Assembly (NCBI GenBank): GCA_902775285.1
Contig: CACYLI010000002.1
Span: forward strand, 82,756-146,755
DNA length: 64,000 bases
Direction: 5' to 3'
DNA from: an uncultured Erysipelotrichaceae bacterium
GTDB lineage: Bacteria; Bacillota_I; Bacilli_A; RF39; UBA660
Under the pieces are notes generated by a model. The model was not told the DNA's origin. It saw only the letters and a list, made by a program, of their open reading frames with translations, and did not search any database. Numbering within the stretch: position 1 is the first letter of the stretch; each line of letters starts with the position of its first letter. The position numbers were made by a program, and so were the translations under genes. Below, piece by piece: positions 6,003 to 63,098 of the stretch.

Positions 6003-6041
6003 TAGCATTACTGATTTAACTTTTCGAAAGGAAATGATTTT

Positions 6042-9243: not shown

Positions 9244-9320
9244 TGGTGGAGAATGTGGGACTTGAACCCGCGACCTCCTGCGTGCAAGGCAGATGCTCTA
9301 GCCAACTGAGCTAATTCCCC
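9244..9320 (-). tRNA. tRNA-Ala (anticodon TGC)
   Basis: Reverse complement reads GGGGAATTAGCTCAGTTGGCTAGAGCATCTGCCTTGCACGCAGGAGGTCGCGGGTTCAAGTCCCACATTCTCCACCA. Cloverleaf is intact, the G3:U70 alanine identity pair is present, the anticodon loop is CTTGCAC, and CCA is encoded. Confidence 0.9.
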
Positions 9321-13394: not shown

Positions 13395-13744
13395 TAATAA
13401 TTCTTAATAAGCCATGTTCTGTACCTAAAAGGTGACAAACATTTATCTAGGGATTACTCCCTCCCTTACTCCTTTATTAATTCATTCGTAAGAGTTCCCC
13501 TACCAAATTTGGGTTTCTCACTCGCGGGGTTTACCTCGTTCCACAATTGTTATTCCTAACAATCTCGTCTCTATGGCACTTTTATACCTACTTTAATCAG
13601 TTCTTGATTATTTCGGAGCCGTTAGTATAAATATACTACCTAAGGTTATTTTTTCCCTTAGCACGAACATTACCATCCATTCCAGGATGAGTGAGCATGG
13701 ACTTTCCTCTACATAATATGCAGCGTTTGTCTAAAGAATTATTC
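13395..13744 (-). ncRNA. rnpB: RNase P RNA (type B, Firmicute)
   Basis: Reverse complement contains GTAGAGGAAAGTCCATGCTC, GGTAAACCCCGCGAGTGAGAAACCCAAATTTGGTAGGGGAAC and ACAGAACATGGCTTA. P1 helix AATAATTCTT pairs with AAGAATTATT. Sits next to gpsB, as in Bacillus. Ends are approximate to within about 5 nt. Confidence 0.85.
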
Positions 13745-47312: not shown

Positions 47313-50300
47313 TTATTCTTCCATTTTTGTCTTATATGAAATACAATCTGCTATTAAACTAAATCTTTCATAATCATTATCAAGCATACATCTAATTAAT
47401 TCTCTTTTATGTGCAAGAACAACATCTTTAAAATAGATATAATCTCTTCTTTCATCAAAATATTTTCTATATAATTCAAATATCTTCTTTTTATCTTTAT
47501 CACTATAATAACAGAAGAATTTAGCAAATATATACATATCATGATTAATTGCATGAGTTACATAATACGCTTTATATTTATCCATTGCTAGATTAAATAT
47601 TTTGATCATCTTATCAATTCTTTCATTTACTTGATCAAATGTATATTTTGTAGTTATGGATGAATTATTTCCATAATTAATCCAGTTATAAACATCTCTA
47701 TTTACTATACCAATTCTATCAAAATACTTATAAATCTGTGCCATAAATAAATTATCTTCAAACATTCCTTTTTCAAATCTAATATTTGATTTTCTAAGTT
47801 CTTCTAAATTATATATTTTACATGTAGATATTGTATCAGAAAGTAATAAGATTCTATTTTCCATAGTATTAATAGAAGATTTTTTATATAAATTTTTAAA
47901 CCAGAAAGATAATTTTCTTTCTTTGTATTTATATTTTCTGCATCTTCCACCTACTACATTTAGTTTATGTTTTTCTGCATAATCAACTAAATAATTAAGT
48001 GCATATTTACACATAGTATCATCTGAATCAATAAAGAAAACATACTTTCCACGTGCTTTTTCTATTCCATAATTTCTAACAAGTCCTGGTCCTTCATTTT
48101 CTTTTTTAAAATACTTAACATTTTTATATTTTTTACAAATATCTCTTGGATCTTGATCACAACCATCATTTATTAGTAGCACTTCGTTATTTTTATATCC
48201 AGATTTTTTAATAGATTTAAGTAGCGCTTCAACAGTATCAATATTATTGTAAAAAGGTACTATTATTGAAACTAATGGGTATTTTTTATGTTTAAATAAA
48301 TTTTTAATTTTATATTTTAAACAATTAAAATACATTAATCCATCAAATACAATTTTTTTATTATTTTTTGCAAATTGATAACAATGTTTTTTTACAAAAC
48401 TAATACCAAATTTAATAACTTTTCTTTTTTGTTTAACAAGGAAATTTTTTAATTTAGTTTTTGTTTGTTTTGGAGGAATATTATCTAAAGATTCAACTTC
48501 ATCAAATAGTTTTATCCACCTATTAACAATTGTATCATTTGAAAATCTATTAATTATTTTATTAAAATCTTTTTTATCAAATTCACCATTATTTAATCTT
48601 TTTACAAATTCATTTATGTTAGAAGTTTCAATTAGATTAACACAACTATAATCTTTAAATTCGCTTGCTGCTGTAAAAGAATTATATAAATAAATTGGTA
48701 CTCCATAATTAGCACTTTCTAGTATAGTTAATGGAAAACCTTCTGTTAAACTTGTAAGGATTATACCTTGTTTGTCTTTATACATTTCATCTTTATTATC
48801 ACAATATCCATGAACAATTACTCTTTTTTCTAGTCCTAATTCTTTTATTTTGTTTTCATATTCACTTCTTAGTTTTCCATCTCCATAAACATGAAGTTTA
48901 TAATTCTTATTAAGATTTTTATTTTTAAATATTTCTAATGTATCAAAAATATTCTTATCTAAATCAAGTCTAGAGATAAATGCAAATTCATTATTATTTT
49001 TGTAATAATTCTTAATATTTTTAAAAGTATATGAATTTTCCATAAATCCTAGTTTTTCTTTTACTTCATCATTTACTTTACTTCCAAGTAATTTAGCATT
49101 TCCTTCTGTCAATAACAATAGTTTTTTATAATTATAAAGACTAAAATTATTTAATTCTTTTAAATGCCATGTATAAATATTCTTACTAATAATATCTTTA
49201 GTATCCCCATGAAACATTAATATATTATTTTTATTATTTAAATATCTTTCAAATCTTTTATGAGCTCCGAATTGACATGAAATTACATAACCATCAGTAT
49301 TTTCAAGAATTGGAATAATATTTTCTGAATCTTTATCGAAAGATAATTTAACATCAATTAATCCTTCTTTATCAAACTCATAAAAGTCTTTATTACTTGT
49401 TGAATATCTTCTATTAGCTATTACAAATATTCTTGAATTATATTTTGATTTAAATTCTCTTGATAAATTCATAACAAAAGTATTAATACCACCAATTTCA
49501 TTTAATTCATTTATAAGAAATATAATATCTTTTGTTTTTCTAGTACTTTTATCAAAATTTAATTTACTAACTAATTCTTTAGTAGAATCTTTCTTTTGAT
49601 GAGGATAAAAAGTCTTTTTTATTCTAGATAAATTTTTAGTATCAATTGACTTATCAATAATAGAAAGTAAATCTTTTTCATTAGTAACTATATATTTATT
49701 ATCTACATAGTCTTCTAATTTAAACATAAAACCTCTATCTTTTTCATATTCTTCTTTATCATATTGATAAAAAATCATAGGTTTATCTAATATAGAATAA
49801 TCAAAAAATAAACTTGAATAATCACTTATTAACAAATCACAAATACAAAGCAAATCATTTACACAAGGATAACTTGTTAAATCAATAACATTACCATCAC
49901 TTACTAAAGTATTTAAATAATGTAATTTTGTTACTATTATCCATTCATCTTTATCTTTATTAAGTTTATTTAATAATTTTGATGAATCAAATGGTAATTT
50001 ATAACTACCTTTTACTCTATATGTAGGAGCAAATAATAATATTTTTTTATCCTTTGGTAAACCAAGTCTTTCTTTTATTTCATCTTTTTCTTTTTCACTT
50101 TTAAATATTGAGTCTGTTCTAGAAACAGCAGTTTCTAGTATTTCTCCTCTATAAAGCATTGACTTTCTTAAAAATTCTTCTGTATAAAATTTACAAGGAG
50201 ATACCATTAAATCTATTCCTTCAGCATATTCTAGCGTATCTAATATTGTCTTTTTATCTAAATCGATAAACATTTTTTTATATGGGATTCCATGCCATAC

Positions 50301-50570
50301 GCTAACTCTTTTTTGTGTATCACAAACTCTAGTTTTGAAATTTATACTTCCTGCATCAATTATATAGTCTGCTACTAGTTTTAGATATAAAGTATATGGA
50401 TTCTTTTTATTTAAATATTTAACATTATCAACTTCTTTTTCTTCACTATCATAAATAACATATACATCAAAATCATCTTTATAATACTTTATAAAGTTTT
50501 CAATATCACCCATTACTTTAGAATTATAAGCAGATGGAATAAGTACAAGTTTTTTCTTATATTCAGTCAT
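47313..50570 (-). CDS. multidomain teichoic acid synthase: CDP-glycerol glycerophosphotransferase + GT4 + GT2 fusion
   Basis: N-terminal Glyphos_transf (VSVWHGIPYKK), central GT4 (EGFPLTILESANYGVPIY), C-terminal GT2 (PLVSIIVPFYNN…INDGCDQD); 1085 aa. Confidence 0.75.
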   Translation of the reverse strand: MTEYKKKLVLIPSAYNSKVMGDIENFIKYYKDDFDVYVIYDSEEKEVDNVKYLNKKNPYTLYLKLVADYIIDAGSINFKTRVCDTQKRVSVWHGIPYKKMFIDLDKKTILDTLEYAEGIDLMVSPCKFYTEEFLRKSMLYRGEILETAVSRTDSIFKSEKEKDEIKERLGLPKDKKILLFAPTYRVKGSYKLPFDSSKLLNKLNKDKDEWIIVTKLHYLNTLVSDGNVIDLTSYPCVNDLLCICDLLISDYSSLFFDYSILDKPMIFYQYDKEEYEKDRGFMFKLEDYVDNKYIVTNEKDLLSIIDKSIDTKNLSRIKKTFYPHQKKDSTKELVSKLNFDKSTRKTKDIIFLINELNEIGGINTFVMNLSREFKSKYNSRIFVIANRRYSTSNKDFYEFDKEGLIDVKLSFDKDSENIIPILENTDGYVISCQFGAHKRFERYLNNKNNILMFHGDTKDIISKNIYTWHLKELNNFSLYNYKKLLLLTEGNAKLLGSKVNDEVKEKLGFMENSYTFKNIKNYYKNNNEFAFISRLDLDKNIFDTLEIFKNKNLNKNYKLHVYGDGKLRSEYENKIKELGLEKRVIVHGYCDNKDEMYKDKQGIILTSLTEGFPLTILESANYGVPIYLYNSFTAASEFKDYSCVNLIETSNINEFVKRLNNGEFDKKDFNKIINRFSNDTIVNRWIKLFDEVESLDNIPPKQTKTKLKNFLVKQKRKVIKFGISFVKKHCYQFAKNNKKIVFDGLMYFNCLKYKIKNLFKHKKYPLVSIIVPFYNNIDTVEALLKSIKKSGYKNNEVLLINDGCDQDPRDICKKYKNVKYFKKENEGPGLVRNYGIEKARGKYVFFIDSDDTMCKYALNYLVDYAEKHKLNVVGGRCRKYKYKERKLSFWFKNLYKKSSINTMENRILLLSDTISTCKIYNLEELRKSNIRFEKGMFEDNLFMAQIYKYFDRIGIVNRDVYNWINYGNNSSITTKYTFDQVNERIDKMIKIFNLAMDKYKAYYVTHAINHDMYIFAKFFCYYSDKDKKKIFELYRKYFDERRDYIYFKDVVLAHKRELIRCMLDNDYERFSLIADCISYKTKMEE

Positions 50571-51819
50571 TCTTTATTATCTCCTTTAATACTCGTTTAC
50601 TTGAATCTTTATCATCTAAATAATTAAATCTTTTATTAAATAATTCATATTTTGTTTTATATTTTTTCCAATAATTATTAATATTTTTTATTTCTTTATA
50701 CAAATCTTCTTCACTCTCTACTATTGGACCAGGAAGTTCATCTAAATCAATATAAAAATCTCTTGCATTATTCTTATAATCCTCTAAATCATACATATAA
50801 AATAACATAGGTCTTTTTAAATTAGCATAATCAAAGAATACACTTGAATAGTCAGTTATTATCATATCAGCAAGTATATATAAATCATTAATATCACTAT
50901 AATCTGATACATTATATATGAATCCTTCATATTTACTTAAATCAATTATTTCAGCTACTAAATAATGTGTTCTAAATAATACAATATACTCTTTACCAAA
51001 TAATTTTTTAAATCTATCAAAATCAAGAGCAAGATTATAACTATAACCAGTACCCACTTTATATTGATCATCTCTCCATGTAGGTGCATATAATATTATT
51101 TTCTTATCTTCTGGTATATTTAACTCTTCTTTTAATTTTTTAACATATTTTTGATCATAAGAAAACAATATATCATTTCTAGGATACCCTGTTTCTAAAA
51201 TACAATTATCTTTTCCAATTTTCTTTAAATTAAATGCACTAATATACTTTTCTGTAACAAATCTTGATGGTGAAACCATATATTTATACCTTTTAGCATC
51301 ATATTCATAAAGACGAGTCCATTCTTTTACAGTATGAATTGCATTTTTTCCTTTAACTTCAATATCAAAACCTAGTCTTTTTAAAGGAGTTCCATGCCAA
51401 CATTGAACATAATTTTGATTTTGTTTTGGAACTATATAATCTGGAAGTCTAGATGGTGTAAACCAATACTTAGCACTAGCATAAGCTTTTTTATATTCAT
51501 CACTATCATATTTAACAACTTTAGTATTTTTATTATTTTCAAGAAATTTAAATTTTTCTGGGTCTTTAAATGCCCATATAAATTTAAAATCTTTATATTC
51601 TTTATTATTTAACATTTCTAAATAAATATACTTTGGACTATCACAATATTTTCTACCATTAAAAGCCTCAAATACACATAATTTATCATCAACTTTATAC
51701 TTTCTATAAAATTTCATATAATTAGCTTTTAATAATTTTGTTCTAGTACTAGTAGCTAGTTCTCTTAACAAAACACTTTTTCTGATAACATCAACTGTAT
51801 ATTGTCTCACTTTATTCAT
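50563..51819 (-). CDS. tagF: CDP-glycerol glycerophosphotransferase (TagF/TagB family)
   Basis: CWHGTPLKRLGFD Glyphos_transf motif. Confidence 0.8.
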   Translation of the reverse strand: MNKVRQYTVDVIRKSVLLRELATSTRTKLLKANYMKFYRKYKVDDKLCVFEAFNGRKYCDSPKYIYLEMLNNKEYKDFKFIWAFKDPEKFKFLENNKNTKVVKYDSDEYKKAYASAKYWFTPSRLPDYIVPKQNQNYVQCWHGTPLKRLGFDIEVKGKNAIHTVKEWTRLYEYDAKRYKYMVSPSRFVTEKYISAFNLKKIGKDNCILETGYPRNDILFSYDQKYVKKLKEELNIPEDKKIILYAPTWRDDQYKVGTGYSYNLALDFDRFKKLFGKEYIVLFRTHYLVAEIIDLSKYEGFIYNVSDYSDINDLYILADMIITDYSSVFFDYANLKRPMLFYMYDLEDYKNNARDFYIDLDELPGPIVESEEDLYKEIKNINNYWKKYKTKYELFNKRFNYLDDKDSSKRVLKEIIKND

Positions 51820-51820
51820 A

Positions 51821-52942
51821 TTATTCCTCCATACATTTAAATATTAAATCTACTATTTTCTGAGTACTACTTCCATCTTGAACATCTATATATTTATTTT
51901 TATATTTATATAACACTTCCATATCATATTTATCTTTATCTAAAAAGCTACATAAATCATGGGCATCTTTAAATACACAGCCTTTCATTTCTTTATATAA
52001 ATCTATATTAATACCATTGTTTTTTTGATATTTTTCATAATCAAATACATAGTAAAGTGTTTTCTTATTAATAATAGCTGCTTCTATTGCAATACCACTA
52101 TAATCAGTGATTACATAATCACTTACACAAAGTAAATCTAATGCACTATATTTTTCACAAGATAATACTTGATCATTTGTTTTTAAATCTTGTCTTGCAT
52201 GTGATTTTACAATTAAATTATATTTATTAAAATCAATATTTTTAATTAATTCAATTGTTTTATCATCATTAGTAGTTCTAAAAGTTGGTGCATATAAAAC
52301 ATTTTTCTTCTTATTTAAAATTGGATAATCTTTTAATATTTTATTTTTTAATTTTTTCTCATTTTTAAGTAAATAATCCATTCTAGGTAATCCATAATTT
52401 AAAAAATATTTTTCACTATATCCGAAAGCTTCACTAAAATACTTTGTCATTTCTTTGCTTCCAGAAATAATATAATCATAATTACCATGCATATTTAGTA
52501 TTTTAGCTTCTTTAATATCTCTACCACTAGTATTACCTACTGATTGATATGCAAATTTCTTAATTGCACCCATAGAATGCCATATTTGAATTATTTTTAA
52601 ACTTTTTTTATGGTGTACTACAGATATAGCAGGAACAAAAGAATCAGTTACACATACTTTAGCATTAGCTAAATTACATAAACAACTTAAAGTATATTTA
52701 ATATTACCAAAAAAATCTTCTGTTATAGAAGTCACTCTCTTGCATAAAAATACACACTTAATATTTTTGTTTTCTTCTTTTAGTTTTTCTTCTAAAAGTT
52801 TAATATCAAGTGTTTTTTTAGAATCTAATCTACTAATGAACACAACTTTATTATTATCAACTTTTTTAAATTTCATAAAAAAGTAAATAAATCTACATCC
52901 ATATTTTATTAAATAATTTATTACTGCCATTAAATCCTCCAT
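51821..52942 (-). CDS. tagB: CDP-glycerol glycerophosphotransferase (TagB-like)
   Basis: IWHSMGAIKKF motif; 373 aa. Confidence 0.7.
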   Translation of the reverse strand: MEDLMAVINYLIKYGCRFIYFFMKFKKVDNNKVVFISRLDSKKTLDIKLLEEKLKEENKNIKCVFLCKRVTSITEDFFGNIKYTLSCLCNLANAKVCVTDSFVPAISVVHHKKSLKIIQIWHSMGAIKKFAYQSVGNTSGRDIKEAKILNMHGNYDYIISGSKEMTKYFSEAFGYSEKYFLNYGLPRMDYLLKNEKKLKNKILKDYPILNKKKNVLYAPTFRTTNDDKTIELIKNIDFNKYNLIVKSHARQDLKTNDQVLSCEKYSALDLLCVSDYVITDYSGIAIEAAIINKKTLYYVFDYEKYQKNNGINIDLYKEMKGCVFKDAHDLCSFLDKDKYDMEVLYKYKNKYIDVQDGSSTQKIVDLIFKCMEE

Positions 52943-53007
52943 GTAAGGTTTATATTTTCATTTTAATATATTTTACTTTTTATATCAAGTTTTATGCATA
53001 AATGACA

Positions 53008-53976
53008 TCACTTTTCAATTAAAAATTTTAATATTTCTTCTTTTTCTTTTTTATGTGTAATTATATTATAAATTAAGTTAATAATTGGCATTTTAACATT
53101 CTTTTTCTTAACAAGTTTATGAATAGATTTTAAAGTATACATTCCTTCTACTGTAGTATTATTTAAATAATGATTTATTTCCTCTTCACTAGCACCTTTT
53201 CCTATTAAATAACCAAAACTAAAATTTCTTGAAGTTTTTGAAGTACAAGTCATTAAAATATCTCCAAATCCTGCAAATGAAAGAATTGTTTTCTTCTTTC
53301 CTCCTAAAGCATGAATTAATTCTTTTATATCATTTAAACTTTCAGTTAAGAATAATGCTCTTGTAGAATCAGTTACTCCCATACCTTCAAGTATACCTGA
53401 TGCAATAGCCATAACATTTTTAACACTAGCACATATTTCTACACCAACTATATCTTTACTTCTTCTAAACTTAGTTGTATCATTTTCAAAACAACATCTA
53501 ACTATTTTTTCTAAAGAGTTATACTTTGTAGCAAGACTTAATCCAACAGGTGAATCTTTAACAATATCATCTGCAAAAGTTGGTCCTGAAATAATAGCTA
53601 TTTTATTAGTACAATATTTTTTAAAAACATCATGTAAAAACAAACAAGTATCTTGTTGTATACCCTTAGTAGCAATTAAAATAGGAGTACTCTTTTTCAG
53701 ATTATCTTTTATTTTAATAACTGTTTCTTCAAATGCATAAGCAGGTACTGCAAAAACAATTAAGTCTTTTCCATTAATGCATTCAAATAAATCACTTGTA
53801 AAATTTATACTATCTGGTATTTTATAGTTTTTTAAACGTGAAGATACTCTTGTTTTTTCTAATATTTCTTTTTCTTCTTCTCTTCTAGCCCATAAGCAAA
53901 CATTATTATTATTCTTGGCTGCTATACTAGCTAAAGCAATACCATATGCTCCACTACCTAAAATACCAATATTCAT
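53008..53976 (-). CDS. gpsA: NAD(P)H-dependent glycerol-3-phosphate dehydrogenase
   Basis: MNIGILGSGAYG Rossmann N-terminus; GpsA length. Confidence 0.85.
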   Translation of the reverse strand: MNIGILGSGAYGIALASIAAKNNNNVCLWARREEEKEILEKTRVSSRLKNYKIPDSINFTSDLFECINGKDLIVFAVPAYAFEETVIKIKDNLKKSTPILIATKGIQQDTCLFLHDVFKKYCTNKIAIISGPTFADDIVKDSPVGLSLATKYNSLEKIVRCCFENDTTKFRRSKDIVGVEICASVKNVMAIASGILEGMGVTDSTRALFLTESLNDIKELIHALGGKKKTILSFAGFGDILMTCTSKTSRNFSFGYLIGKGASEEEINHYLNNTTVEGMYTLKSIHKLVKKKNVKMPIINLIYNIITHKKEKEEILKFLIEK

Positions 53977-54046
53977 AAATTCACATCCTATATAAAAATT
54001 TTAATATAAAAAATTATTTATATCAATACAAATTAAAAAAGTTGAA

Positions 54047-55105
54047 TTATTCAACTTTCTTTTTATCAAAAATTATATTCGTCTTAAGTATTAAATATAA
54101 AACAATAAATACTAATATTACATAGCAAACAATAACTGTTTTCTTATCTCCTAAAACATAAAATATAGTTGTTGCTGAGAATAAAATGTTAATAGCATAA
54201 ATAATTAATAAAGTACTTGTTTTATTAAATTTCTTTAAAAATTGATGATGTATATGTTCTTTATCAGCATGATCTATTTTTTGCCCTTTAAGTTTTCTTC
54301 TGATTATTGCAAATAAAGTATCCATAATTGGAATAGCAAGTAAAAATGCGGGAATGATTAGTGAAGTCAAAGTTGTTGTTTTAAATCCAAGTAAGAAAAT
54401 TACAGAAATCATAAAACCTGAAAAAGTACTTCCAGCATCTCCTTGATATATTCTAGCTGGTGGAAAATTATGAACTAAATAACCAAGAGTACTACCTAAC
54501 ATAATTAAACTAAGTATTACATCAAGTCCTCCAAATTTGTTTAATATAAATCCTATAATTGCTATCGTTAAAAAATATATTGAAGAAATACCTGCACAAA
54601 GACCATCTAAACCATCTATTAAATTAATAGCATTAATTATTGCTACTATTATTAGCATTGTTAAGAATGGAGACAAAACTCCAAAATTTAAAGTTAAACC
54701 AAATAATGTTGCTTTAGTAAGTTTAAGTCCTCCATAAAATACTACAATTGATGCGACAACTATCTGTACAATTACTTTATATTTATTTGGCATTGGTGTT
54801 TCACTCTTTGTCATATCATCAAATAATCCCAAAAGCATTATCAAAAATGATGAAATCAAAATAGAAAGCATCAAATTATTCTTAGGAGCAAATAACATAT
54901 ATCCAAGTAAAAATGCTAAAAATATTCCAATTCCTCCAAGTAATGGCATAGGTTTTGTATGTATCTTTCTTTTGTCATTAGGAATATCTAATACTTTTAA
55001 AAATACAGCTACTCTCTTCATCATCTCAACAAACATTAAAGAAGCTAAAAAAGTAACACCTACTATTAAGAATATATTATGTCCATTTATCTCAAAATGT
55101 TCCAT
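54047..55105 (-). CDS. tagO: undecaprenyl-phosphate N-acetylglucosamine-1-phosphate transferase (GT4 MraY/WecA family)
   Basis: Polytopic; DGLDGL motif; NFPPARIYQGDAGS. Confidence 0.85.
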   Translation of the reverse strand: MEHFEINGHNIFLIVGVTFLASLMFVEMMKRVAVFLKVLDIPNDKRKIHTKPMPLLGGIGIFLAFLLGYMLFAPKNNLMLSILISSFLIMLLGLFDDMTKSETPMPNKYKVIVQIVVASIVVFYGGLKLTKATLFGLTLNFGVLSPFLTMLIIVAIINAINLIDGLDGLCAGISSIYFLTIAIIGFILNKFGGLDVILSLIMLGSTLGYLVHNFPPARIYQGDAGSTFSGFMISVIFLLGFKTTTLTSLIIPAFLLAIPIMDTLFAIIRRKLKGQKIDHADKEHIHHQFLKKFNKTSTLLIIYAINILFSATTIFYVLGDKKTVIVCYVILVFIVLYLILKTNIIFDKKKVE

Positions 55106-55191
55106 AGAATCACTTCCTTAAAGATATTATAAAACAATATTATTAAAATATCTATAAATTTTTTATGAAAGAAAAACCTGTATAAAACAGG

Positions 55192-57186
55192 TTACATTTT
55201 CTTTTTAGTTTTTTCTAATCTTTGAACCAATAAAACTAAATTATCTCTTGTTAATTTTTCATTTCCTCTATAATTTCTAATTGAATCACCTATTCTTAAT
55301 CCATAAAAATATTCATCACTAATTTCAGGAAAATCATCTCTATTGAATCTATCTCCATTTTCTTTAACAAATCTCATATTTTCAATTGGATAAAGATTGT
55401 TTCTACCGCGTGATGTTAACAAACCATTAGCAAAAACATTAATATGGTTTTTAGTAATTATATTACATACATCTACTTCTTCATATACTATTTTACTGTC
55501 AATTAACGAAATAACTTCACCTTTACTATTTATTGTAGTTGTTCCAATTTTCATCTTTGAGCAAGATATAAAGCTATTATCATCACAACTAAATATTCTA
55601 TGGTCACCAATTACTTTTAATGTGCTTCCATCACTAAATGTCAATAAAAGATAATTTGATGATTTTTCTTCTTTCATAATCCACAACACTTCAGCCCAAA
55701 CGTAACATCCTTTATCAAAATCCCATGATAATACTAAATCATCATATGTTATATCTTTAAGTTTTTTCTTAACTTTTTTCTTCTTCTTTCTATCGTATAC
55801 ATCAATTTCCATATCTCCACTTAAGCAAGTAACAAATGTAGCGTGAGAATAGCATCCATTACTACTATCTTTTACTAAATCACTTATATAAACATCTTGA
55901 TAACTTAATTTATGCTGATTTAAACAATATATAGAATTATTTCCATTATTACAATCTGAAGAAGGTTTGTCATAAATGTAAAACTTTTCTTTTGTATTAT
56001 AATTACTATTGTTTTTAAAGCATTCCCCTGCTGTTTGATAATTCTTACAAGTTACATTACTAGTAACACCTTTCACATTAATATATGATAATGTTGAAAA
56101 ATAGCAAACATTTACATCTTCAATTTTAGTCCATTGAATATTAAGTGTATTTTCAGAACAATTATTACAAATCGATACACCAGACACATAATAATCTGAC
56201 ACAGAATTGTTTAATGTATCTATATAGGTTTGAAATGTATTATTATCTACCCAAGGTCCTGTAAATGATTCATTAACAGAAAAAGAATCTGCATAAAAGA
56301 ATTCATTTTCTACCAAACCACAATTTCTAATATCATCCGACATTTCAGCTCTAATAACTGCTCTGTTATATCCAAAACCAGCATTCAAATATGTAGTCTT
56401 TCTATAATCTGTATCTAAGTATTTATTCTTTGTTAAATCATATCTATGTTCTGCTAAATCAGATTTTTTTAATTCAAATTTTAAATCATGATTTCCTTGA
56501 TAAATCCAATAAATTCTGTAATAAGATGAATCTGTAAAACAATTGGATTTTGCTAGATTAACTCTAATAGCTAGTTGTCTATTATTCCCAGAATTTAATA
56601 AGTCTGTAGTATGAATTGTATAAGCATCATATTTATATCCATCATCTATTCCATTTATATAAACTGATTTTACATCTCCTGATGTAGAAAAACTTCCTCT
56701 ATCAGTAACTAATTTATACTTAATAGTTGGTTTTCCAATATATGGACCATTTCCATCTATTTTAACTTTTTCATCTTCATCCAATTCAGAAACTCTTTGT
56801 ATATCAGTTATATTTTCTATTTTTAGTCCAGTACCATCATAACTGTATTGAAATGTTCCATCTGTTGCATAATACTTAGTAATTTTACCACTTTGATTTA
56901 ATTTAATATAGTATTCTAGTTCACTTCTACCGGTTAAATCAAGACTATTAGTACATCCATTTTTGCATCTTGAATATATTCTTTCACCACTATTAAACAT
57001 AGAATCTTGAATCCATGTTTGTTCGGCTGTTTTAAATACTTCTTTGACTTCTGTTGTAAAACTATTTTCTTTTGCAGTATTAAACATATTCATAACATTT
57101 GGTAGTGCTATTATTACTAAAATTGCAAGTATAGCTATTACTGCAAGTAACTCAACTAATGTAAATCCTTTTTTCATATATATCAC
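55192..57186 (-). CDS. type IV prepilin-like protein with a large Cys-rich ectodomain and a C-terminal Hint (BIL/hedgehog-intein-like) domain
   Basis: N-terminus MKKGFTLVELLAVIAILAIL is a class III prepilin signal (G-1, F+1, E+5). Residues about 454-592 carry Hint blocks: CLSGDMEIDV (A), TLKVIGDHRIF (B), NHINVFANGLLTS (F/G). A 72-aa tail follows. Confidence 0.65.
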   Translation of the reverse strand: MIYMKKGFTLVELLAVIAILAILVIIALPNVMNMFNTAKENSFTTEVKEVFKTAEQTWIQDSMFNSGERIYSRCKNGCTNSLDLTGRSELEYYIKLNQSGKITKYYATDGTFQYSYDGTGLKIENITDIQRVSELDEDEKVKIDGNGPYIGKPTIKYKLVTDRGSFSTSGDVKSVYINGIDDGYKYDAYTIHTTDLLNSGNNRQLAIRVNLAKSNCFTDSSYYRIYWIYQGNHDLKFELKKSDLAEHRYDLTKNKYLDTDYRKTTYLNAGFGYNRAVIRAEMSDDIRNCGLVENEFFYADSFSVNESFTGPWVDNNTFQTYIDTLNNSVSDYYVSGVSICNNCSENTLNIQWTKIEDVNVCYFSTLSYINVKGVTSNVTCKNYQTAGECFKNNSNYNTKEKFYIYDKPSSDCNNGNNSIYCLNQHKLSYQDVYISDLVKDSSNGCYSHATFVTCLSGDMEIDVYDRKKKKKVKKKLKDITYDDLVLSWDFDKGCYVWAEVLWIMKEEKSSNYLLLTFSDGSTLKVIGDHRIFSCDDNSFISCSKMKIGTTTINSKGEVISLIDSKIVYEEVDVCNIITKNHINVFANGLLTSRGRNNLYPIENMRFVKENGDRFNRDDFPEISDEYFYGLRIGDSIRNYRGNEKLTRDNLVLLVQRLEKTKKKM
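55411..55827 (-). other. Hint domain coding segment within the pilin-like gene
   Basis: The Cys1 codon is at 55825-55827. The terminal HN of canonical inteins is replaced by TS, so only N-terminal thioester chemistry is expected. Confidence 0.55.
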
Positions 57187-57312
57187 CTATTCTATAAATC
57201 CATTATATATAAATTTAACAGATTATACAATTATAACAATTGTTTTTTTTAAAAAAACAATATGTAAACCATGTAAAATTATAGATTATATAATGAAAAA
57301 TATGTAATATTT

Positions 57313-57356: not shown

Positions 57357-59630
57357 ATGAAAAAATTAACTTTTTTAATTATTTTTTTAACTATTCTATT
57401 CTTTTTAATCCCACTAAAAATTAATGCTAGTTATGATGCAATTATAAGTGGTAATACAGTTAGAATTCGTTTGCTTCCAGGTACAGAAAATACTGCTTTA
57501 TATACAGTTAATTCAGGTACATCAATTACCTTACCTGATAAAACTTTATATTCAGGTACTGGATGCAGTGCTAAATGGTATAAAGTTAATTATAAAGATA
57601 AAACTGGTTATGTATGCTCTACTTATGTAAAATTTGTTGATAATACTTTTACTGGAATAAATGTTGTTGATTGGACTTCAAGAGTAAATGCTAATAATGT
57701 TGCTTGTAGAAGTGGTGCTAATAAATCATATAGTGTACAAGATACTCTATCTTTAGGGGTAAATGTTAGAATTATTTCTACAGTTGATTCTTCTAACTCA
57801 GGATGTTCAACTGATAAATGGCATAAAATTCAATATTATGGAAATAAAACTGGTTATATTTGTTCTCAATATGTAACAACTAAATCAGATATAATAGCAA
57901 ATGATGAAGAATATTCAAAATCTCTTAAAGCTCTTGGATTTACTGATTCTTATATTCCATATCTAACATATCTACATAATAAATATCCTAATTGGGTTTT
58001 TATAGCTAAAAAAACAGATTCAAATTTTTCAGTAGCGGTAAGTAGCGAAGAAGGAAAAAATTATATGCAAACAACAAATAATAATTATCGTACTTCTTCT
58101 ACTCCTGCTGAAGGTAGTTCATGGTTTAAAGCTAATACTGGAGTAATAGCATTTTATATGGATCCTAGAAACTTTTTAAGTGAAGAAAGAATATTCATGT
58201 TTGAAAAATTAGATTATTCTAATGAATTTGAAGAAAAATATCCATCTATGATTAAAGCTATTTTTGGAAATGGAAAACTATCAGATGACATGTATACAGT
58301 TCCAATCTTTAATGCAGGAAAAATAAATAAAATAAGTCCTGTTCATATAGCAAGTAGAATTAAACAAGAAGTAACTGCTAATGGAAGTGATTCTACAAAT
58401 GGAACAGAATTTACATTTAAAGGAAAAAAATATAGTGATTATTATAATTTCTTTAATATCGGAGCTTATGAAGAAACAATAGACGGAGTTAAATACTCTG
58501 CTATCACAAGAGGTCTTGCATATGCAGCTAAATTAGTAAGAAATACTGGAAGTTTATGGAATAACATTGAAACTGCTATAGTTGAAGGAAGTAATTTCCT
58601 AGCAAATGGATATGTAAATAATGGACAAGGAACACTTTATTATCAAAAATTCAATGTATCTCCTGATGCTTATTATTCAAGATATACTCATCAATATATG
58701 ACAAATGTTCAAGCACCTGCAACTGAAGGTAATTCAACTTATAATTCTTATAAAAAAGCTGGTATTTTATCTGAACCTTTAATATTTGAAATACCAGTTT
58801 ATAACAATATGCCATTATACACTTCTCTACCTGCTTCAGGTGATAATAATACAAATTTAAAATCACTAAATATTGAAGGATACTCACTTACTCCTAATTT
58901 TGATAGTGATATATTAACTTATGAATCTTATGTTTCTTCAATTACTAATGAATTAAATGTAACTGCTACTACGGAAAGTTCAAAAGCTAGTATTAGTGGT
59001 ACTGGAAAAATATCTTTAAATGAAGAAGATAATGATATTACAATAACTGTAACTGCACAGACAGGTGAAACTAAAAACTATGTTATAACAATTAAAAAAG
59101 TAACAGATAATACAGTTAGTGAAAAACCTATAATTAATAATCAAAATGAAAATAATACAGATACAAATCCTACTAATAATAACACTAATAATACAACTGC
59201 TACAAATATTTCAACTATTCTTAATAATGCAGCTCTAACTATAAATGGTAGTAATATTACAAATATAAAATATAATACTTCTGCTTCTATAATTCAAAAT
59301 AATATTATTAGATCAGGAGCTCAAAGTATTAATATAACAGATTCAAAAGGAACAAATATTTCTGGAAGTACTTATATATCTACTGGTAGTAAATTAACTA
59401 TTAATACAACTAATGAAACTAATACTTATACTTTTATTATTAAAGGTGATACTTCTGGTGATGGACAAATTTCAATACTAGATTTATTACAAGTTCAAAA
59501 ACATATTAAAGGAGATAAAAAATTATCAAATGAATATTTATTATCTGCTGATACTTCAGGAGATGGTAAAGTTACAATATTAGATTTATTACAAGTTCAA
59601 AAGCATATTAAAGGAGACAAAAAATTATAG
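57357..59630 (+). CDS. secreted SH3b-domain cell-wall-associated protein with a cadherin-like beta-sandwich domain and a C-terminal type I dockerin
   Basis: Signal peptide; two SH3b-like repeats (…AKWYKVNYKDKTGYVCSTYV… and …DKWHKIQYYGNKTGYICSQYV…); cadherin-like domain (NLKSLNIEGYSLTPNFDS…ITIKK); two dockerin calcium-binding segments (GDTSGDGQISILDLL and ADTSGDGKVTILDLL). Confidence 0.7.
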   Translation: MKKLTFLIIFLTILFFLIPLKINASYDAIISGNTVRIRLLPGTENTALYTVNSGTSITLPDKTLYSGTGCSAKWYKVNYKDKTGYVCSTYVKFVDNTFTGINVVDWTSRVNANNVACRSGANKSYSVQDTLSLGVNVRIISTVDSSNSGCSTDKWHKIQYYGNKTGYICSQYVTTKSDIIANDEEYSKSLKALGFTDSYIPYLTYLHNKYPNWVFIAKKTDSNFSVAVSSEEGKNYMQTTNNNYRTSSTPAEGSSWFKANTGVIAFYMDPRNFLSEERIFMFEKLDYSNEFEEKYPSMIKAIFGNGKLSDDMYTVPIFNAGKINKISPVHIASRIKQEVTANGSDSTNGTEFTFKGKKYSDYYNFFNIGAYEETIDGVKYSAITRGLAYAAKLVRNTGSLWNNIETAIVEGSNFLANGYVNNGQGTLYYQKFNVSPDAYYSRYTHQYMTNVQAPATEGNSTYNSYKKAGILSEPLIFEIPVYNNMPLYTSLPASGDNNTNLKSLNIEGYSLTPNFDSDILTYESYVSSITNELNVTATTESSKASISGTGKISLNEEDNDITITVTAQTGETKNYVITIKKVTDNTVSEKPIINNQNENNTDTNPTNNNTNNTTATNISTILNNAALTINGSNITNIKYNTSASIIQNNIIRSGAQSINITDSKGTNISGSTYISTGSKLTINTTNETNTYTFIIKGDTSGDGQISILDLLQVQKHIKGDKKLSNEYLLSADTSGDGKVTILDLLQVQKHIKGDKKL
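59433..59627 (+). repeat. dockerin duplicated-segment coding region (two near-identical stretches of about 55 nt)
   Basis: The nucleotide-level repeats at about 59470-59530 and 59575-59630 both encode ILDLLQVQKHIKGDKKL. Confidence 0.6.
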
Positions 59631-59638
59631 GAGTAAAT

Positions 59639-61111
59639 ATGAAAAAAGTATACAAATATTTATTAATTGGTTTAATAATGCTGTTTTCCAATATATCACT
59701 ATTAAAAGCAGCTTCTGCAAGTATATCGGTATCATCTTCTACAAGTAAAATAGTTGTTGGTAACTCATTTACTGTTACTATTAAAGTATCATCTTCTAAT
59801 ACACTTGGTACCTGGGAATTTACTCCTAGTTATGATACTTCTAAATTTAAACTTACAAGTGGACAAACAAGTGTAGTAGATTATGGAGATGGTAAAACTA
59901 AATCAAAAAGCTATACATATAAATTTAAAGCTATTGGTACAGGTAGTGGCACAATTTCTGTTAAAAGTTATGGTGTAATTGACTATAATTCAGAATCAAA
60001 AATGAGTGTATCAGTTAGCTCTAAAACAATAAATGTAATAACACAATCTCAATTAGAAGCATCTTATTCAAAAAACAATAATTTAAAAAGTTTAAGTATA
60101 GAAGGTCTTACATTATCACCTGCTTTTAATGCTAATACTACAAAATATACTGTTAGTGCTAATGCCAATACAACAGTAGTCAATGTAAAAGCAAGTGTTC
60201 AAGATTCAAAATCTAAAGTATCTGGTACAGGAAAACATAATGTATATGAAGGTGAAAATAAAATAAATGTTACTGTAACAGCTCAAAATGGAAGTACTAA
60301 AACTTATACAATAATTGTTAATGTAGTAGATCCAAATCCAATTGAAGTAACATTAAATAATCAAAAATATACTGTTGTAAAAAGAGAAAGTAATTTAGAT
60401 ACTCTTGAAGGTTTTGATAAAACTACAGTTGATATTAATAATCAAAAAATACCTGCCCTATTTAATGAACTTAATAATCTTACACTAATTGGTCTAAAGA
60501 ATACTGAAGGTGATATATCATTATATACATATAATAAAGAGAATAATACTTATAACTTATATAATGATACTATTCTAGAACAAATGAAATTAATATTTCT
60601 TGATATAGATAAAGAAATAAATAATTTAAAAAAAGAAGTAATTAAAATAGATGATATAGATATAATATCTCTTAAATATAATGATCAATATATTGTAAAA
60701 GCTAGAAACTTTAAAACTGGTGAAGATGGCTATTATATATATGATAAAGAAACAAATACTGCTATTAGATATATAGAAAATGTAGAAAAAAAAGATAATA
60801 CAGATGAAAAATATAAAAAACAAATTCTTGGTTATAAAAAAATGATAGTACTTCTTGGTGTAGAAACTGTTATAATAATATGTATTCTTATATGTATATT
60901 ATTTACTAAAATGAGAAAAAATAAAAAGAGAAGAAAATTATTACAAGCAAAAATTGAAGAAGAAAGAATTAAAGAAGAAGAACTAAAAAAACAAGAAGTA
61001 TTAGTTAAAAAGAAAGAAAAAAAGAAAACTACTAATAAGAATAATAAAAGAAAAAAGAAAGAAGTGCTAAAAAATGAAGAAAGTAAAGAAGAACAAAAAG
61101 AAAATATTTAA
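59639..61111 (+). CDS. membrane-anchored cohesin-like scaffold protein with a cadherin-like domain and a charged cytoplasmic tail
   Basis: Signal peptide; cohesin-like beta-sandwich (VGNSFTVTIKVSSSNTLGTWEFTPSYDTSKFKL…); cadherin-like domain paralogous to that of the upstream gene; TM helix (IVLLGVETVIIICILICILF); K/E-rich C-terminal tail. Confidence 0.55.
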   Translation: MKKVYKYLLIGLIMLFSNISLLKAASASISVSSSTSKIVVGNSFTVTIKVSSSNTLGTWEFTPSYDTSKFKLTSGQTSVVDYGDGKTKSKSYTYKFKAIGTGSGTISVKSYGVIDYNSESKMSVSVSSKTINVITQSQLEASYSKNNNLKSLSIEGLTLSPAFNANTTKYTVSANANTTVVNVKASVQDSKSKVSGTGKHNVYEGENKINVTVTAQNGSTKTYTIIVNVVDPNPIEVTLNNQKYTVVKRESNLDTLEGFDKTTVDINNQKIPALFNELNNLTLIGLKNTEGDISLYTYNKENNTYNLYNDTILEQMKLIFLDIDKEINNLKKEVIKIDDIDIISLKYNDQYIVKARNFKTGEDGYYIYDKETNTAIRYIENVEKKDNTDEKYKKQILGYKKMIVLLGVETVIIICILICILFTKMRKNKKRRKLLQAKIEEERIKEEELKKQEVLVKKKEKKKTTNKNNKRKKKEVLKNEESKEEQKENI

Positions 61112-63098
61112 AACAATAATATGTTTATTATTGATGTTTCTTTTATTTTTAGGAGTATTATTAGATAGCTATGCTCTATTCCTATATGATGAAGTTGAAA
61201 CATTACTTAGAATACTTGGTGCTTCAATTACAATTTATTTATTTATATTTTTATCATATTTATTACTTAGAAGTATTAAAAAAGGAAAAATTGCTTTTAT
61301 AATACCATTTTTAATAAGTATTATAGTATTAGTAGTTGAAGGTGGACTTTATTATTATTTAAACAAGCTTTATACTTCAATTGATGATTTCAGTGACAAT
61401 AAAGCAATGAAATATACTGCTTTAGTTACATATGATAAATCATTAAATAGTTATAAAGACTTAGATAATAAAAAAATTGGAGTTACCAATGATAAAACTG
61501 ATTATGAAGGAAATATTCTTGCTCAAGAAGCAATAGAAGAACTTCATTTAACTGTAGCTAATGAAATAGTTGTATTTGATTCAACTTTAGAAGAATTATA
61601 TGCACTTAAAAATAAAGAAATAGATGCTGGATTCTTTAGTAGAAATTATGTTGATATGTTCTACTCTATGGAAGATTTTGAAGATATTGAAGAAGAAACA
61701 AAAGTTATCTATGAAAAAGAAAAAGAATATACTGATACAGAAGAGGAAATAAAAAGTGAAGGTGCTTCATTAAACAAACCATTTAGTATGTTGTTTATTG
61801 GTGTTGATTCATCAAAAGATGGTGTTACCTCTGGTTATAATGCTGATGTATTATTATTAGCTACGTTTAATCCAAAAACCTTAAGAGCTACTCTTACTTC
61901 TGTTCCAAGAGACATGTATTTAAAAACAGCTTGTTCAAATGGAACATATAGAAGAATAAATACGACTACTTGGGGAAGTTCTTCTTCCTGTGCAGTTCAA
62001 ACAATTGAAAGAATGTTTGGAGTTAATATTGATTATTATGCAAAAGTTAATTTTAAGGGAGTTGTTCAACTAGTAGATGCAGTTGGTGGAATTGATGTAA
62101 ATGTTGACTACCCTATTTGTGAACAAAATAGTAGTAGACAATGGGGAGCAAATACACAATACATTAAGTCTGGTCTTCAACATCTAAATGGTGAACAAGC
62201 TCTAGCATTTGCAAGAAATAGACATAAACCTAATGATGGAAGTAAAACTGGAAAAGCTATGGCAAAGTATTGCCCTACTTGGACAGGTGGTTCAAGAAAT
62301 GATTATACAAGAGGAAAAAATCAAATGAAAGTTATTCTAGGAGTTGTAAATTCAGCTACTAAAATGACTAATCCAAATGATGTTGTGGGTGTACTTGATA
62401 AAATTAAAAAGAATTTTCAAACAAATATTAAATCAAAAGATTTATTATCATTATATAATTTAGCAAAATCAATAGTTGTATCAGATAATACAAATTTAGT
62501 AAATGTACAAAGAATGCAATTAAGCGGACATAGTGCTTGGGGAAAAATATATGAACCTACTTCTAAAAGTTACCCAGCTGTAATTATTCCATATAATGGA
62601 AGTATTAGTGATATTAAAAAAGAAATAAAAGCTAATCTTAATAACTCAACAACTAGTGGAGCAAAAAGCATTAAATTTGATATAAATAACTTATATAAAG
62701 ATACTATAATTGGTCAAGGTAAATATTCTGCTTCATCAATACCAACTTTAAAAGACTTATCTAAATATTCAGTAGATGGAATTAAAAACTATGCTTCATC
62801 TAATCATTTAACTCTTAGATTTATAGATAGTTCAAATGGTCAAGAAGTTAATATTAATGATTTTAGTGAATATTCATTTCATTATCAAAAAGAACATAAA
62901 GATATTATATTAGATCAACTAAGTAATTTAACTATTTATGTTAAAAAGAAAGCAGTAGTGACACCTACTACTAATAATCAAACTAATACAAATACTAATA
63001 CTAATACTGATAATACAAAAGAGGAAGTTAAAGAAGAAGTAAAAGAAGAAGAAAAACCAACACCTGATCCTACTCCAACAGAAACAAATACACAATAA
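61074..63098 (+). CDS. LCP family (LytR-CpsA-Psr) phosphotransferase with extended N- and C-terminal regions
   Basis: N-terminal TM helix; LCP core (ADVLLLATFNP…LTSVPRDMYL…VNFKGVVQLVDAVGGIDVNV…LNGEQALAFARNRH); 674 aa. Confidence 0.85.
   Translation: MKKVKKNKKKIFKTIICLLLMFLLFLGVLLDSYALFLYDEVETLLRILGASITIYLFIFLSYLLLRSIKKGKIAFIIPFLISIIVLVVEGGLYYYLNKLYTSIDDFSDNKAMKYTALVTYDKSLNSYKDLDNKKIGVTNDKTDYEGNILAQEAIEELHLTVANEIVVFDSTLEELYALKNKEIDAGFFSRNYVDMFYSMEDFEDIEEETKVIYEKEKEYTDTEEEIKSEGASLNKPFSMLFIGVDSSKDGVTSGYNADVLLLATFNPKTLRATLTSVPRDMYLKTACSNGTYRRINTTTWGSSSSCAVQTIERMFGVNIDYYAKVNFKGVVQLVDAVGGIDVNVDYPICEQNSSRQWGANTQYIKSGLQHLNGEQALAFARNRHKPNDGSKTGKAMAKYCPTWTGGSRNDYTRGKNQMKVILGVVNSATKMTNPNDVVGVLDKIKKNFQTNIKSKDLLSLYNLAKSIVVSDNTNLVNVQRMQLSGHSAWGKIYEPTSKSYPAVIIPYNGSISDIKKEIKANLNNSTTSGAKSIKFDINNLYKDTIIGQGKYSASSIPTLKDLSKYSVDGIKNYASSNHLTLRFIDSSNGQEVNINDFSEYSFHYQKEHKDIILDQLSNLTIYVKKKAVVTPTTNNQTNTNTNTNTDNTKEEVKEEVKEEEKPTPDPTPTETNTQ

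Follow-up and report, generated by a model that had tools for sequence, protein, structure and literature searches.

The gene on the minus strand at 55192..57177 (assigned from the open reading frame, sequence reading, and a database twin) encodes, in a spore-forming low-GC bacterium of gut type, a modular prepilin ending in a Hint domain and a conserved tail (Hint+tail); positions are those of the window, the whole stretch of 64,000 nucleotides that was analysed. The protein is best read as a modular pilin whose Hint+tail probably removes itself at Thr450/Cys451. The Hint+tail is a unit of its own, a large unnamed family spread across many surface-protein carriers, and its standing, judged by sequence comparison, as a general C-terminal unit beyond pilins is the new point. 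What the analysis shows is the architecture, the fold, that the catalytic residues are conserved, and how the unit is distributed.

An uninterrupted open reading frame occupies 55192..57186 of the minus strand. Since a ribosome-binding site (AGGTGA, 57183..57188, minus strand, sequence reading) precedes an ATG at 57177 with a 5-nt spacer, and the called GTG at 57186 lies inside that site, the ATG is likely the true start, giving a product of 661 aa; the database twin (P0001, ~100% identical) is called from the same ATG. Of the 664 aa given by the sequence-only reading, the reading frame was retained and the start was moved, so that Cys454 of that numbering becomes Cys451, and the "about 20 cysteines" mentioned there came to 17 when counted. 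The stop codon (TAA, 55192-55194, minus strand) is overlapped by an intrinsic terminator (hairpin and T-run, 55175..55193, minus strand), identified from the sequence and by a terminator search that returned 2 sites against 0.2 expected, and a GT4 glycosyltransferase gene follows. No pilus-machinery genes were found in the 64-kb window, either among the ~40 ORFs scanned or by motif search, in agreement with what had been said of pilus assembly genes from the sequence.

There is a vanishingly small likelihood that the gene owes its form to an error of assembly or a frameshift, or that it holds a genuine mobile intein. The only point in favour of an artefact is the unusual size of the protein. 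Fusion of a pilin gene and a Hint gene by assembly or frameshift error, named beforehand as a way in which the proposal could fail, was rejected because the homologue check recovered the order pilin-middle-Hint-tail in over 30 relatives that are independent of one another and come from different samples; a full-length ortholog (P0002, 59% identity) lies in a different genomic context, and the gene has one ribosome-binding site and one terminator.

The N-terminus reads MKKG followed by FTLVELLAVIAILAILVIIALP: a short, basic leader has Gly as its last residue, after which come Phe+1, Glu+5, and a hydrophobic stretch of ~20 residues. N_methyl (Pfam) reaches 28.3 bits and TIGR02532 reaches 28.6 bits, above their respective cut-offs of 21.2 and 16.3, bearing out the class III signal sequence (MKKG/FTLVE) proposed earlier, and on these sequence grounds prepilin peptidase is predicted to remove the leader (57166..57177, minus strand) by a cut after Gly4. 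The pilin-type head (residues 1-140; 56758..57177, minus strand; AF2 and profile search) was modelled by AF2 as an alpha1 helix (residues 7-59) and 4 strands with pLDDT 87-98, and its profile, with E values as low as 5e-11, matches alpha1 of many type IV pilins of solved structure. The head thus has the pilin fold, a long alpha1 packed on an antiparallel beta-sheet, the sheet as predicted by the model. Hundreds of paralog-like proteins bearing other C-terminal modules share the head at 55-78% identity. By definition, a modular pilin begins with a pilin module and continues with at least one module of another kind (PMC8179133); here the pilin module of residues 1-140 is followed by two middle domains (M1 and M2) and the Hint+tail.

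M1 (residues 145-330; 56188..56745, minus strand) was delimited by sequence comparison, AF2 not being confident in this region. It is common to the short Hint-less pilins P0031, P0032, P0036, P0055, and P0079, which end shortly after M1, so the head-M1 combination is viable without a cap. M2 (residues 331-450; 55828..56187, minus strand; AF2 and comparison) is Cys-rich, with 8 Cys and pLDDT ~66-94, and was found only directly upstream of the Hint module; its last residue, Thr450, is the predicted new C-terminus. A fold search with the full-length model returned Hint matches only, and none for the head, M1, or M2.

The Hint fold (residues 451-589; 55411..55827, minus strand) was located by Pfam, the family profile, AF2, fold search, and alignment. 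Its best Pfam match, at 25.2-28 bits (E 2e-6 to 1e-5), is the Hint model (the Hedgehog Hint model), below the cut-off of 29.7 bits. The family profile matches solved BIL and intein chains, with BIL2 of BUBL as the closest solved relative. Foldseek searches with the AF2 model of the Hint+tail (pLDDT 93.4, pTM 0.88) gave E values of 3e-9 to 1e-6 and TM scores on the target of 0.77-0.86, with BIL2 of Tetrahymena BUBL, a C. thermocellum BIL, the gp41-1 intein, and Hedgehog 1AT0 as best matches, and Hedgehog 6TYY also among the fold matches. The Pfam and structure checks proposed with the sequence-only reading thus confirmed its Hint fold, by a match under the Pfam cut-off and strong fold matches to BILs, inteins, and Hedgehog.

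The residues expected of the Hint superfamily are in place. The N-terminal nucleophile of block A is Cys451 (55825-55827, minus strand; motif CLSGDMEIDV), the block-B His is His526 (55600-55602, minus strand; motif TLKVIGDHRIF), and the terminal block NHINVFANGLLTS (residues 577-589, within the Hint fold, minus strand) has no His-Asn; the predicted cleavage junction runs from ...HATFVT, ending at residue 450, into CLSGDMEIDVYDR, starting at Cys451. All of the Hint motifs quoted earlier were recovered, but not the Thr of TxxH in block B, which is replaced by Val or Ile while the His is kept. Cys1 is present in 103/103 aligned representatives and the block-B His in 142/142, and both are invariant across subgroups, including 30/30 pilin-type members; 'ILTS' is 96-99% conserved among family representatives. 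The block G region reads 'NVFANGLLTS', and the domain ends in ...LLTS-R-G.

This ending, the absence of a host protein around the Hint, and a C-terminal segment that is the conserved tail set the protein apart from inteins. No homing endonuclease or C-extein was found in it by Pfam or alignment, and it has neither His-Asn nor a conserved +1 nucleophile; a genuine mobile intein was rejected on these four counts, and the earlier judgement that this is not a true intein stands. With His-Asn and the +1 nucleophile missing, only the N-terminal Hint reaction is possible, and this, together with the fold matches, supports the BIL/Hog-like, N-terminal-only Hint that had been suggested.

Inside the Hint fold lies a Lys-rich beta-hairpin, DRKKKKKVKKKLKD (55753..55794, minus strand; alignment and AF2), which bacterial members of the pilin-type subgroup conserve and viral members lack. 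Its DNA has mixed AAG/AAA codons and no long homopolymer, and phase variation through the Lys run was rejected on the mixed codons and on a run of at most 6 consecutive A's. A catalytically dead Hint, retained as a structural unit for binding or oligomerisation, could use such a hairpin to bind anionic wall polymers, and this reading, which we consider quite improbable, gains from the strongly basic character and conservation of the hairpin, from teichoic-acid genes that adjoin the gene in the window, from the sub-threshold Pfam score, from the missing Thr of TxxH, and from an Arg in place of the Cys that is essential in Hedgehog. It is opposed by the invariance of Cys1 and the block-B His in all subgroups, which is hard to explain without catalysis, and by the fact that N-terminal cleavage by BILs and inteins needs no downstream Cys (PMC4031507). 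The adjacency to teichoic-acid genes is not kept either: the relatives' loci L002 and L003 lack this setting, and no conserved gene neighbourhood was found there.

The tail (residues 590-661; 55195..55410, minus strand; alignment and AF2) carries the near-invariant motifs NNxY, MKF, and GLRxxE, and its residues N155, Y157, K163, K166, R189, and E192 (alignment numbering) are 92-99% conserved. It is conserved from Firmicutes to giant-virus MAGs, and a Gaeavirus match to the Hint+tail extends through it. The 72 aa after the Hint were correctly noted from the sequence, but they are not a separate short C-terminal piece: the tail belongs to the autoprocessing unit, is conserved, and was modelled with high confidence in one chain with the Hint core (pTM 0.88). 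These properties bear on whether the Hint might free the tail as an effector, as in polymorphic toxins, where HINT is known as a releasing protease upstream of toxin domains (PMC3482391). Two pilin-headed relatives (P0069 and P0083) do carry PT-HINT or intein-type Hints ending in His-Asn, but in the present protein no Asn is available to sever the tail from the Hint, with which it models confidently, the variable region lies upstream of the Hint and not downstream, the tail is conserved and not polymorphic, and the gene is followed 3' by the terminator and the glycosyltransferase gene, with no immunity-like gene. Release of a toxin is accordingly very unlikely, and the echo of polymorphic toxins heard in the sequence-only reading fails.

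Arg590 falls where inteins have their terminal Asn and Hedgehog has C143. At this position ~60% of the wider family have Cys (N to C spacing +6, the same register as C143), and most canonical-prepilin members have Arg or Gln. Hedgehog processing requires Cys at the equivalent position, where it forms a branched thioester (PMC12054796); since the present protein has Arg590 there, the subgroup with Arg or Gln might, by analogy, be slower, differently resolved, or inactive.

The main rival to self-cleavage is thioester-mediated ligation, in which the tail would act like the sterol/adduct-recognition region (SRR/ARR) of Hedgehog and present a specific acceptor for the Thr450 thioester (an amine or hydroxyl of the wall or of teichoic acid, a lipid or sugar, or another protein through one of its lysines), leaving the pilin ectodomain, and in phages the fibre tip, covalently attached via its C-terminus. 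A Hint with a conserved extension of ~70 aa and no Asn is the Hog layout (PMC2362128, PMC12054796). The Cys in the C143 register in the majority of the wider family, the high conservation of the six tail residues listed above, and BUBL BIL2 as closest solved relative point the same way. For BUBL BIL2, conjugation of the ubiquitin-like flank on its N-terminal side to targets has been proposed. Ligation is nevertheless rather unlikely here. The tail has no detectable homology to the Hedgehog SRR (hhalign to Drosophila HhC aligned blocks A-B only, with a probability of 7% and E 0.005), and its many charges make it unlike a lipid; by inspection, the position of the Hedgehog general base D46 is Lys or Gln, and the pilin-Hint protein has Arg and not Cys at the C143 equivalent. 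A second covalent anchor would bring no obvious gain to a pilin already anchored at its N-terminus, and the acceptor cannot be named. We regard it as unlikely that the Hint+tail is a prokaryotic and viral counterpart of Hog, with the tail as an adduct-recognition region guiding the thioester-activated C-terminus of pilins, adhesins, and phage fibre tips to a defined acceptor, a nucleophile of the cell wall or of a glycan, lipid, or protein. Were this so, surface fibres would have a sortase-independent chemistry of covalent attachment, and the family, with Cys in the C143 register and no Asn, would be a candidate for an evolutionary step from inteins to the autoprocessing domains of Hedgehog or the reverse.

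Clustering at 50% identity gave about 3,500 clusters of Hint+tail, nearly always at the extreme C-terminus: the module ends at most ~10 aa from the C-terminus in nearly all of ~140 diverse representatives, and it is C-terminal in essentially all of the viral ORFs examined. The carriers are pilins, Sec-secreted proteins of LRR/DUF285/Kelch/YadA type, and tail-fibre proteins, with the carrier domains Mtd_N, Kelch, YadA_head, LRR_5, He_PIG, Flg_new, DUF285, collagen, and fn3/Laminin_G. Tail-fibre proteins with Hint+tail occur in 98 IMG/VR viral loci, and at one locus (L045) a Hint-capped collagen-like protein (5574-8576 of that locus) lies within a phage tail-fibre gene cluster. A tblastn search of the module against 50,697 GenBank phage records gave no match, and P0244 has a tail-fibre-like N-terminus in a cellular-looking genomic context; the phage link therefore rests on the IMG/VR contigs. 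No model in Pfam, NCBIfam, or PHROG reaches its curated cut-off for the Hint+tail or covers the tail, public databases hold no names for the family members, and a literature search found no paper describing the family. The same search found no description of a Hint on a pilin scaffold, as had been supposed, with the caveat that the arrangement is no one-off, the Hint+tail being widespread on many carriers, phage tail fibres among them.

For the preferred reading of self-removal, we infer cleavage, its timing, any chaperone role, and incorporation into a pilus. The class III signal would lead to membrane insertion, prepilin peptidase would take off MKKG, and the pilin head would allow display by a type IV filament, most likely at its tip, or retention in the membrane, with M1 and M2 exposed outward. 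The Hint+tail would act as a single-turnover autoprocessing module: Cys451, aided by His526, would attack the Thr450 carbonyl in an N-S acyl shift, and the thioester would be resolved by water or a small nucleophile, yielding a mature pilin-ectodomain of ~51 kDa ending in Thr450 and a free basic Hint-tail fragment of ~25 kDa. Asn cyclisation, C-terminal cleavage, and splicing are not possible. Since phage tail fibres, collagen-like fibres, and LRR/Kelch/YadA-type adhesins are capped by this unit too, its general role is most likely to serve extracellular fibres and adhesins as a C-terminal cap for maturation or folding that removes itself, in functional parallel to the intramolecular chaperone domain Peptidase S74; a folding-chaperone role is suggested only by analogy. 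The polar residues that hardly vary in the tail (N, Y, K, R, E) look more like those of a binding or catalytic site than of a passive cap, a feature that favours ligation. The sub-gathering Pfam Hint score, the lack of visible pilus machinery in the 64-kb window, and Arg590 in place of the Hedgehog Cys also count against the preferred reading.

Should the prediction prove right, the extracellular fibres of bacteria, phages, and giant viruses are matured by a very large Hint subfamily that has no name, and the task of the S74 tailspike chaperone would have been solved a second time by unrelated chemistry. Modular pilins would gain a self-processing class, annotators a handle on the C-termini of many unannotated tail-fibre and adhesin proteins, and a small self-cleaving tag, dependent on Cys and able to fold outside the cell, would become available. 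The Cys, Asn, and Arg variants at the intein-Asn/Hedgehog-C143 position form a natural series for tracing how the chemistry of Hint domains diverged between inteins, BILs, and Hedgehog.

Among known systems, BILs (2LWY of C. thermocellum; 6TMM/6Y75 of BUBL BIL2) are the best structural and sequence matches of the Hint module, and share with it a Hint in secreted or variable proteins, an N-terminal Cys, and no C-extein +1 nucleophile; by this likeness, cleavage-dominated chemistry would be expected. Type A BILs have a C-terminal His-Asn as in inteins, and type B BILs have no block-G similarity (PMC4031507). The present module fits neither published definition, since it has Thr-Ser-Arg at the His-Asn position (in the family, Thr-Ser and then Arg, Gln, or Cys) and keeps a block G ('FANGILTS' in the family), its 'NVFANGLLTS' aligning with block G of BIL2 and inteins except for the last two residues. 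BILs are also internal and have no conserved C-terminal extension of ~70 aa, whereas the Hint+tail is strictly C-terminal.

Hedgehog and Hog proteins resemble the Hint+tail in fold (1AT0, 6TYY), in supplying the best Pfam model, in C-terminal placement in a secreted protein, in an N-terminal reaction only, in a region of ~70 aa after the Hint, and, in the wider family, in a Cys in the C143 register. They differ in that the tail does not align by hhalign to the SRR/ARR, the region with motifs J, K, and L that follows the Hint in Hog, and in the catalytic pair, where the D46 position is Lys (WIMK; Lys or Gln in the family) and the C143 register is Arg590; the Hint+tail also lacks the Thr of TxxH, and its carriers are prokaryotic and viral. 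PT-HINT resembles it as a releasing protease in secreted multidomain proteins, the HN-type Hints of P0069 and P0083 included, but the present protein has a conserved tail, no variable toxin, and no immunity gene.

Peptidase S74 is unrelated in fold and chemistry, using a Ser-Lys dyad where the Hint+tail is a Cys/His Hint, and the Pfam model Peptidase_S74 gave no match to the pilin-Hint protein at E<=1. The likeness is one of position and use: S74 is likewise a self-removing single-turnover domain at the extreme C-terminus of phage fibres and modular pilins (the latter as IPR012902-IPR030392), with the same carrier spectrum. Modular pilins of large size were already known as a class, and some carry this other self-cleaving domain; pilin-S74 (self-cleaving tailspike chaperone) is the sixth most common modular-pilin architecture (PMC8179133). 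No Hint or intein module is among the 264 modular-pilin architectures catalogued in the text and supplement of that study (PMC8179133). As in PilB and PilC of Streptococcus sanguinis, a small pilin module bears grafted functional modules in a monoderm, and the conserved head with variable cargo follows the idea of 'carrier + effector', but the prediction for the present protein is that its last module is shed and not displayed.

The pilin gene lies in an uninterrupted open reading frame on the minus strand (55192..57186), and the GTG start assigned by the ORF lister falls within a Shine-Dalgarno sequence, AGGTGA (57183-57188), separated by a 5-nt spacer from an ATG at 57177. The product is therefore 661 aa long, replacing the 664 aa counted from GTG in the sequence-only reading, and opens MKKGFTLVELL, as does its database twin (P0001). 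Residues are numbered on the 661-aa product; the earlier numbering runs 3 higher. A hairpin with a T-run (55175-55193) overlaps the stop codon. That the gene is an assembly or fusion artefact is essentially excluded.

The window has a G+C content of ~24% and belongs to the chromosome of a spore-forming, low-GC Firmicute, since it carries genes for RNase P class B, RecA, UvrB, RNase J, spore germination and teichoic-acid synthesis. The RNase P RNA (13403-13738, minus strand, 255.8 bits) is of the class typical of low-GC Gram-positives, and one tRNA was found (9247-9320, minus strand). The GerA/GerAC (GerC)/GerB spore-permease operon (38218-41770, plus strand) runs against most of its neighbours, lies where the window's G+C is lowest (18-21%) and shows the organism to be a spore former despite the 'uncultured Tenericutes' label on a relative's contig. 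Divergent from the pilin gene, 57357-59630 (plus strand) encodes a secreted protein of 757 aa that combines two SH3_3 domains and a cadherin-like domain with a type I dockerin at its C-terminus, which is unusual outside cellulosomes; the gene after it (59639-61111) specifies a cadherin-like domain, a TM segment and a tail rich in K and E. A wall teichoic-acid-type cluster lies on both sides (47313-55105, minus strand; 61074-63098, plus strand) and includes a 1,085-aa protein that by inspection is a putative fusion of TagF-like and GT2-like regions, a 418-aa ORF (50563-51819), a 373-aa CDP-glycerol glycerophosphotransferase (51821-52942, Pfam Glyphos_transf), GpsA, a GT4 (TagO/WecA-like) transferase and an LCP ligase; its adjacency to the pilin gene is not kept in relatives. 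Three minus-strand ORFs, 33452-34750, 41772-43394 and 14261-14974 (432, 540 and 237 aa), gave no Pfam match at E<=1e-4.

The class III N-terminus claimed from the sequence was upheld, and the prepilin head is real beyond motif level: Pfam N_methyl and TIGR02532 each exceed their curated cut-offs, AlphaFold gives one long helix (residues 7-59) followed by four strands at pLDDT 87-98, and a head-only profile matches alpha1 of many solved type IV pilins (E 5e-11 to 1e-3). The head (~140 residues, 56758-57177) is 55-78% identical across >2,000 database proteins (2,131 matches), which diverge completely after it into DUF285, BspA-type LRR, DUF6273 and other modules, and in some other genomes head genes stand in tandem arrays of 6-7 (loci L002, 3671-13966, and L003, 3556-7176). 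The head belongs to a lineage-specific expansion, and the arrays resemble a cassette system displaying variable adhesin modules. This arrangement fits the published modular-pilin concept, namely a conserved pilin carrier with grafted modules in >1,200 proteins and 264 architectures (PMC8179133).

Analysis of the middle region by BLAST and jackhmmer separated two domains, M1 (145-330) and M2 (331-450), neither with a Pfam family match, and M1 was modelled by AlphaFold without confidence. M1 also occurs in short pilins that lack Hint and finish soon after it, and M2, with 8 cysteines, was seen only where the Hint module follows directly, in one protein with a Sec signal and 24 with a pilin head, so that the gene looks, from these sequence comparisons, like a head-M1 unit joined to an M2-Hint-tail cassette. 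The search for homologues thus yielded further pilin-Hint fusions. The whole protein has 17 cysteines, against about 20 estimated previously. Pilin heads have acquired Hint at least twice, since two pilin-headed relatives (P0069, P0083) carry a different, intein/PT-HINT-type Hint ending His-Asn (VHNAS, AHNGI), followed by a short tail only.

For the C-terminus, Pfam Hint was sub-threshold on the single window sequence (25-28 bits, cut-off 29.7) and matched 21 of 30 family members, and the family profile found BIL2 of Tetrahymena BUBL, a solved domain, together with an archaeal intein. Residues 441-661 as modelled by AF2 (pLDDT 93.4, pTM 0.88) gave Foldseek matches to BIL2, the C. thermocellum BIL, gp41-1, other mini-inteins and Hedgehog 1AT0/6TYY (E 3e-9 to 1e-6, TM on target 0.77-0.86), with a query-normalised TM of only ~0.55 because the last ~70 residues lack a counterpart in the matched structures. 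A Gaeavirus protein (giant-virus MAG) matches over 213 columns, tail included. As modelled, the C-terminus is a Hint fold with an integral tail, as the sequence-only reading had proposed for the Hint part. Cys1 and the block-B His are invariant across the family, and its terminal block, FANGILTS, places Thr-Ser at the His-Asn site of inteins, with Arg590 at the terminal Asn position of the window protein; the earlier judgement that this is not a true intein therefore holds. Splicing and C-terminal cleavage through Asn cyclisation are thereby excluded, leaving the N-S acyl shift at Thr450|Cys451 as the sole chemistry still open to the domain. A strongly basic hairpin, DRKKKKKVKKKLKD, is kept in the bacterial pilin-type subgroup and missing from viral members; a homopolymer tract at the DNA level was ruled out for it.

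An exhaustive profile search with Hint+tail returned 3,497 clusters (50% identity) when the limit was E<=1e-3, of which 693 reached E<=1e-30. The module almost always ends within ~10 residues of the C-terminus, in carriers of 400-4,587 aa with Mtd_N, Kelch propellers, YadA head repeats, BspA LRR, He_PIG, Listeria-Bacteroides repeats or DUF285, among others. N-termini were classed for 141 representatives as canonical prepilin (9), GITLIAL-type variant prepilin (15), SMxEMLGV type (2), Sec/TM-like (51), lacking a hydrophobic N-terminus (57) or fragments (7). The variant class III-like N-terminus, KGITLIALV(I/V)TI..LLILAG, has Ala for Glu at +5, straddles the N_methyl threshold (21.9 and 21.0 bits, threshold 21.2) and occurs on many carriers (P0157, P0158, P0163, P0170, P0172, P0176-P0180, P0189, P0191, P0194, P0203, P0214, P0255). 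No PHROG or NCBIfam model covers Hint+tail, Pfam Hint gives sub-threshold matches over the Hint part alone, and public sources hold no name for its members. Hint+tail is a distinct, widespread, unnamed Hint class, the pilin fusion is one context among several, and the window gene is not a unique oddity.

In IMG/VR, 98 Hint+tail loci were found, among them giant-virus MAGs and contigs >500 kb, again with the module at the ORF end and a classical block A, C[LF]x[KAE]GTxI[TA]. Carriers there are collagen-like tail fibres, fn3/Laminin_G virion proteins and proteins matching tail-fibre PHROGs; at one locus in clear phage context (L045), a Hint-capped collagen-like protein lies directly upstream of two more tail-fibre genes. 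The phage link rests on uncultivated viral contigs, because the module is absent from GenBank records of cultured phages and one carrier whose N-terminus is fibre-like (P0244) has a cellular-looking context. After 'ILTS', at the intein-Asn position, 10 of 73 viral ORFs (L004-L083) have Asn and 35 Cys; the family thus covers intein-like, Hedgehog-like and neither-type C-terminal junctions.

Because carriers are extracellular fibres or adhesins, the module is always last in the chain and its chemistry is conserved, Hint+tail on the window protein is probably a self-removing C-terminal maturation cap. It would act as a single-turnover N-terminal autoprocessing domain, and the predicted cleavage would give a mature pilin-ectodomain of ~51 kDa (pI 5.2) and a Hint-tail fragment of ~25 kDa (pI 8.5); the former may be incorporated into a pilus, the tail may have a role of its own, and the cap may act in chaperoning or trimerisation. 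The main rival, Hedgehog/BUBL-like thioester transfer to an acceptor picked by the tail, has in its favour polar tail residues conserved at 92-99% and a Cys in the register of Hedgehog C143, which forms a branched thioester (PMC12054796), in ~60% of non-pilin members; it is unlikely here, as no alignment of the tail to the Hedgehog SRR was obtained, Lys stands at the D46 position, and the C143 position is Arg in the window protein and Cys in only 4 of 39 canonical-prepilin members. That Arg replacement leaves a slim chance for an uncleaved, structural Hint, against which stands the invariance of Cys1 and His in the pilin-type subgroup.

No literature linking Hint, BIL or intein domains to prepilins was found, nor any description of tail fibres capped by Hint, and the accessible portion of the modular-pilin census lists no Hint architecture (PMC8179133), in agreement with the earlier remark that the fusion is undescribed on a pilin scaffold. 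Toxin release by Hint is essentially excluded, and the polymorphic-toxin analogy falls with it, since the protein differs from PT-HINT toxins in their defining features. The same is true for inteins, BIL-A, BIL-B and Hog, so that the suggested BIL/Hog likeness stands for the fold and fails for class membership. The window protein belongs to the Hint superfamily and to the modular pilins. It is likewise distinct from Peptidase S74, the chaperone of phage tailspikes that acts intramolecularly and cleaves itself; S74 provides a published precedent for the cap and ranks 6th by frequency among the modules of modular pilins, with 29 proteins (PMC8179133).
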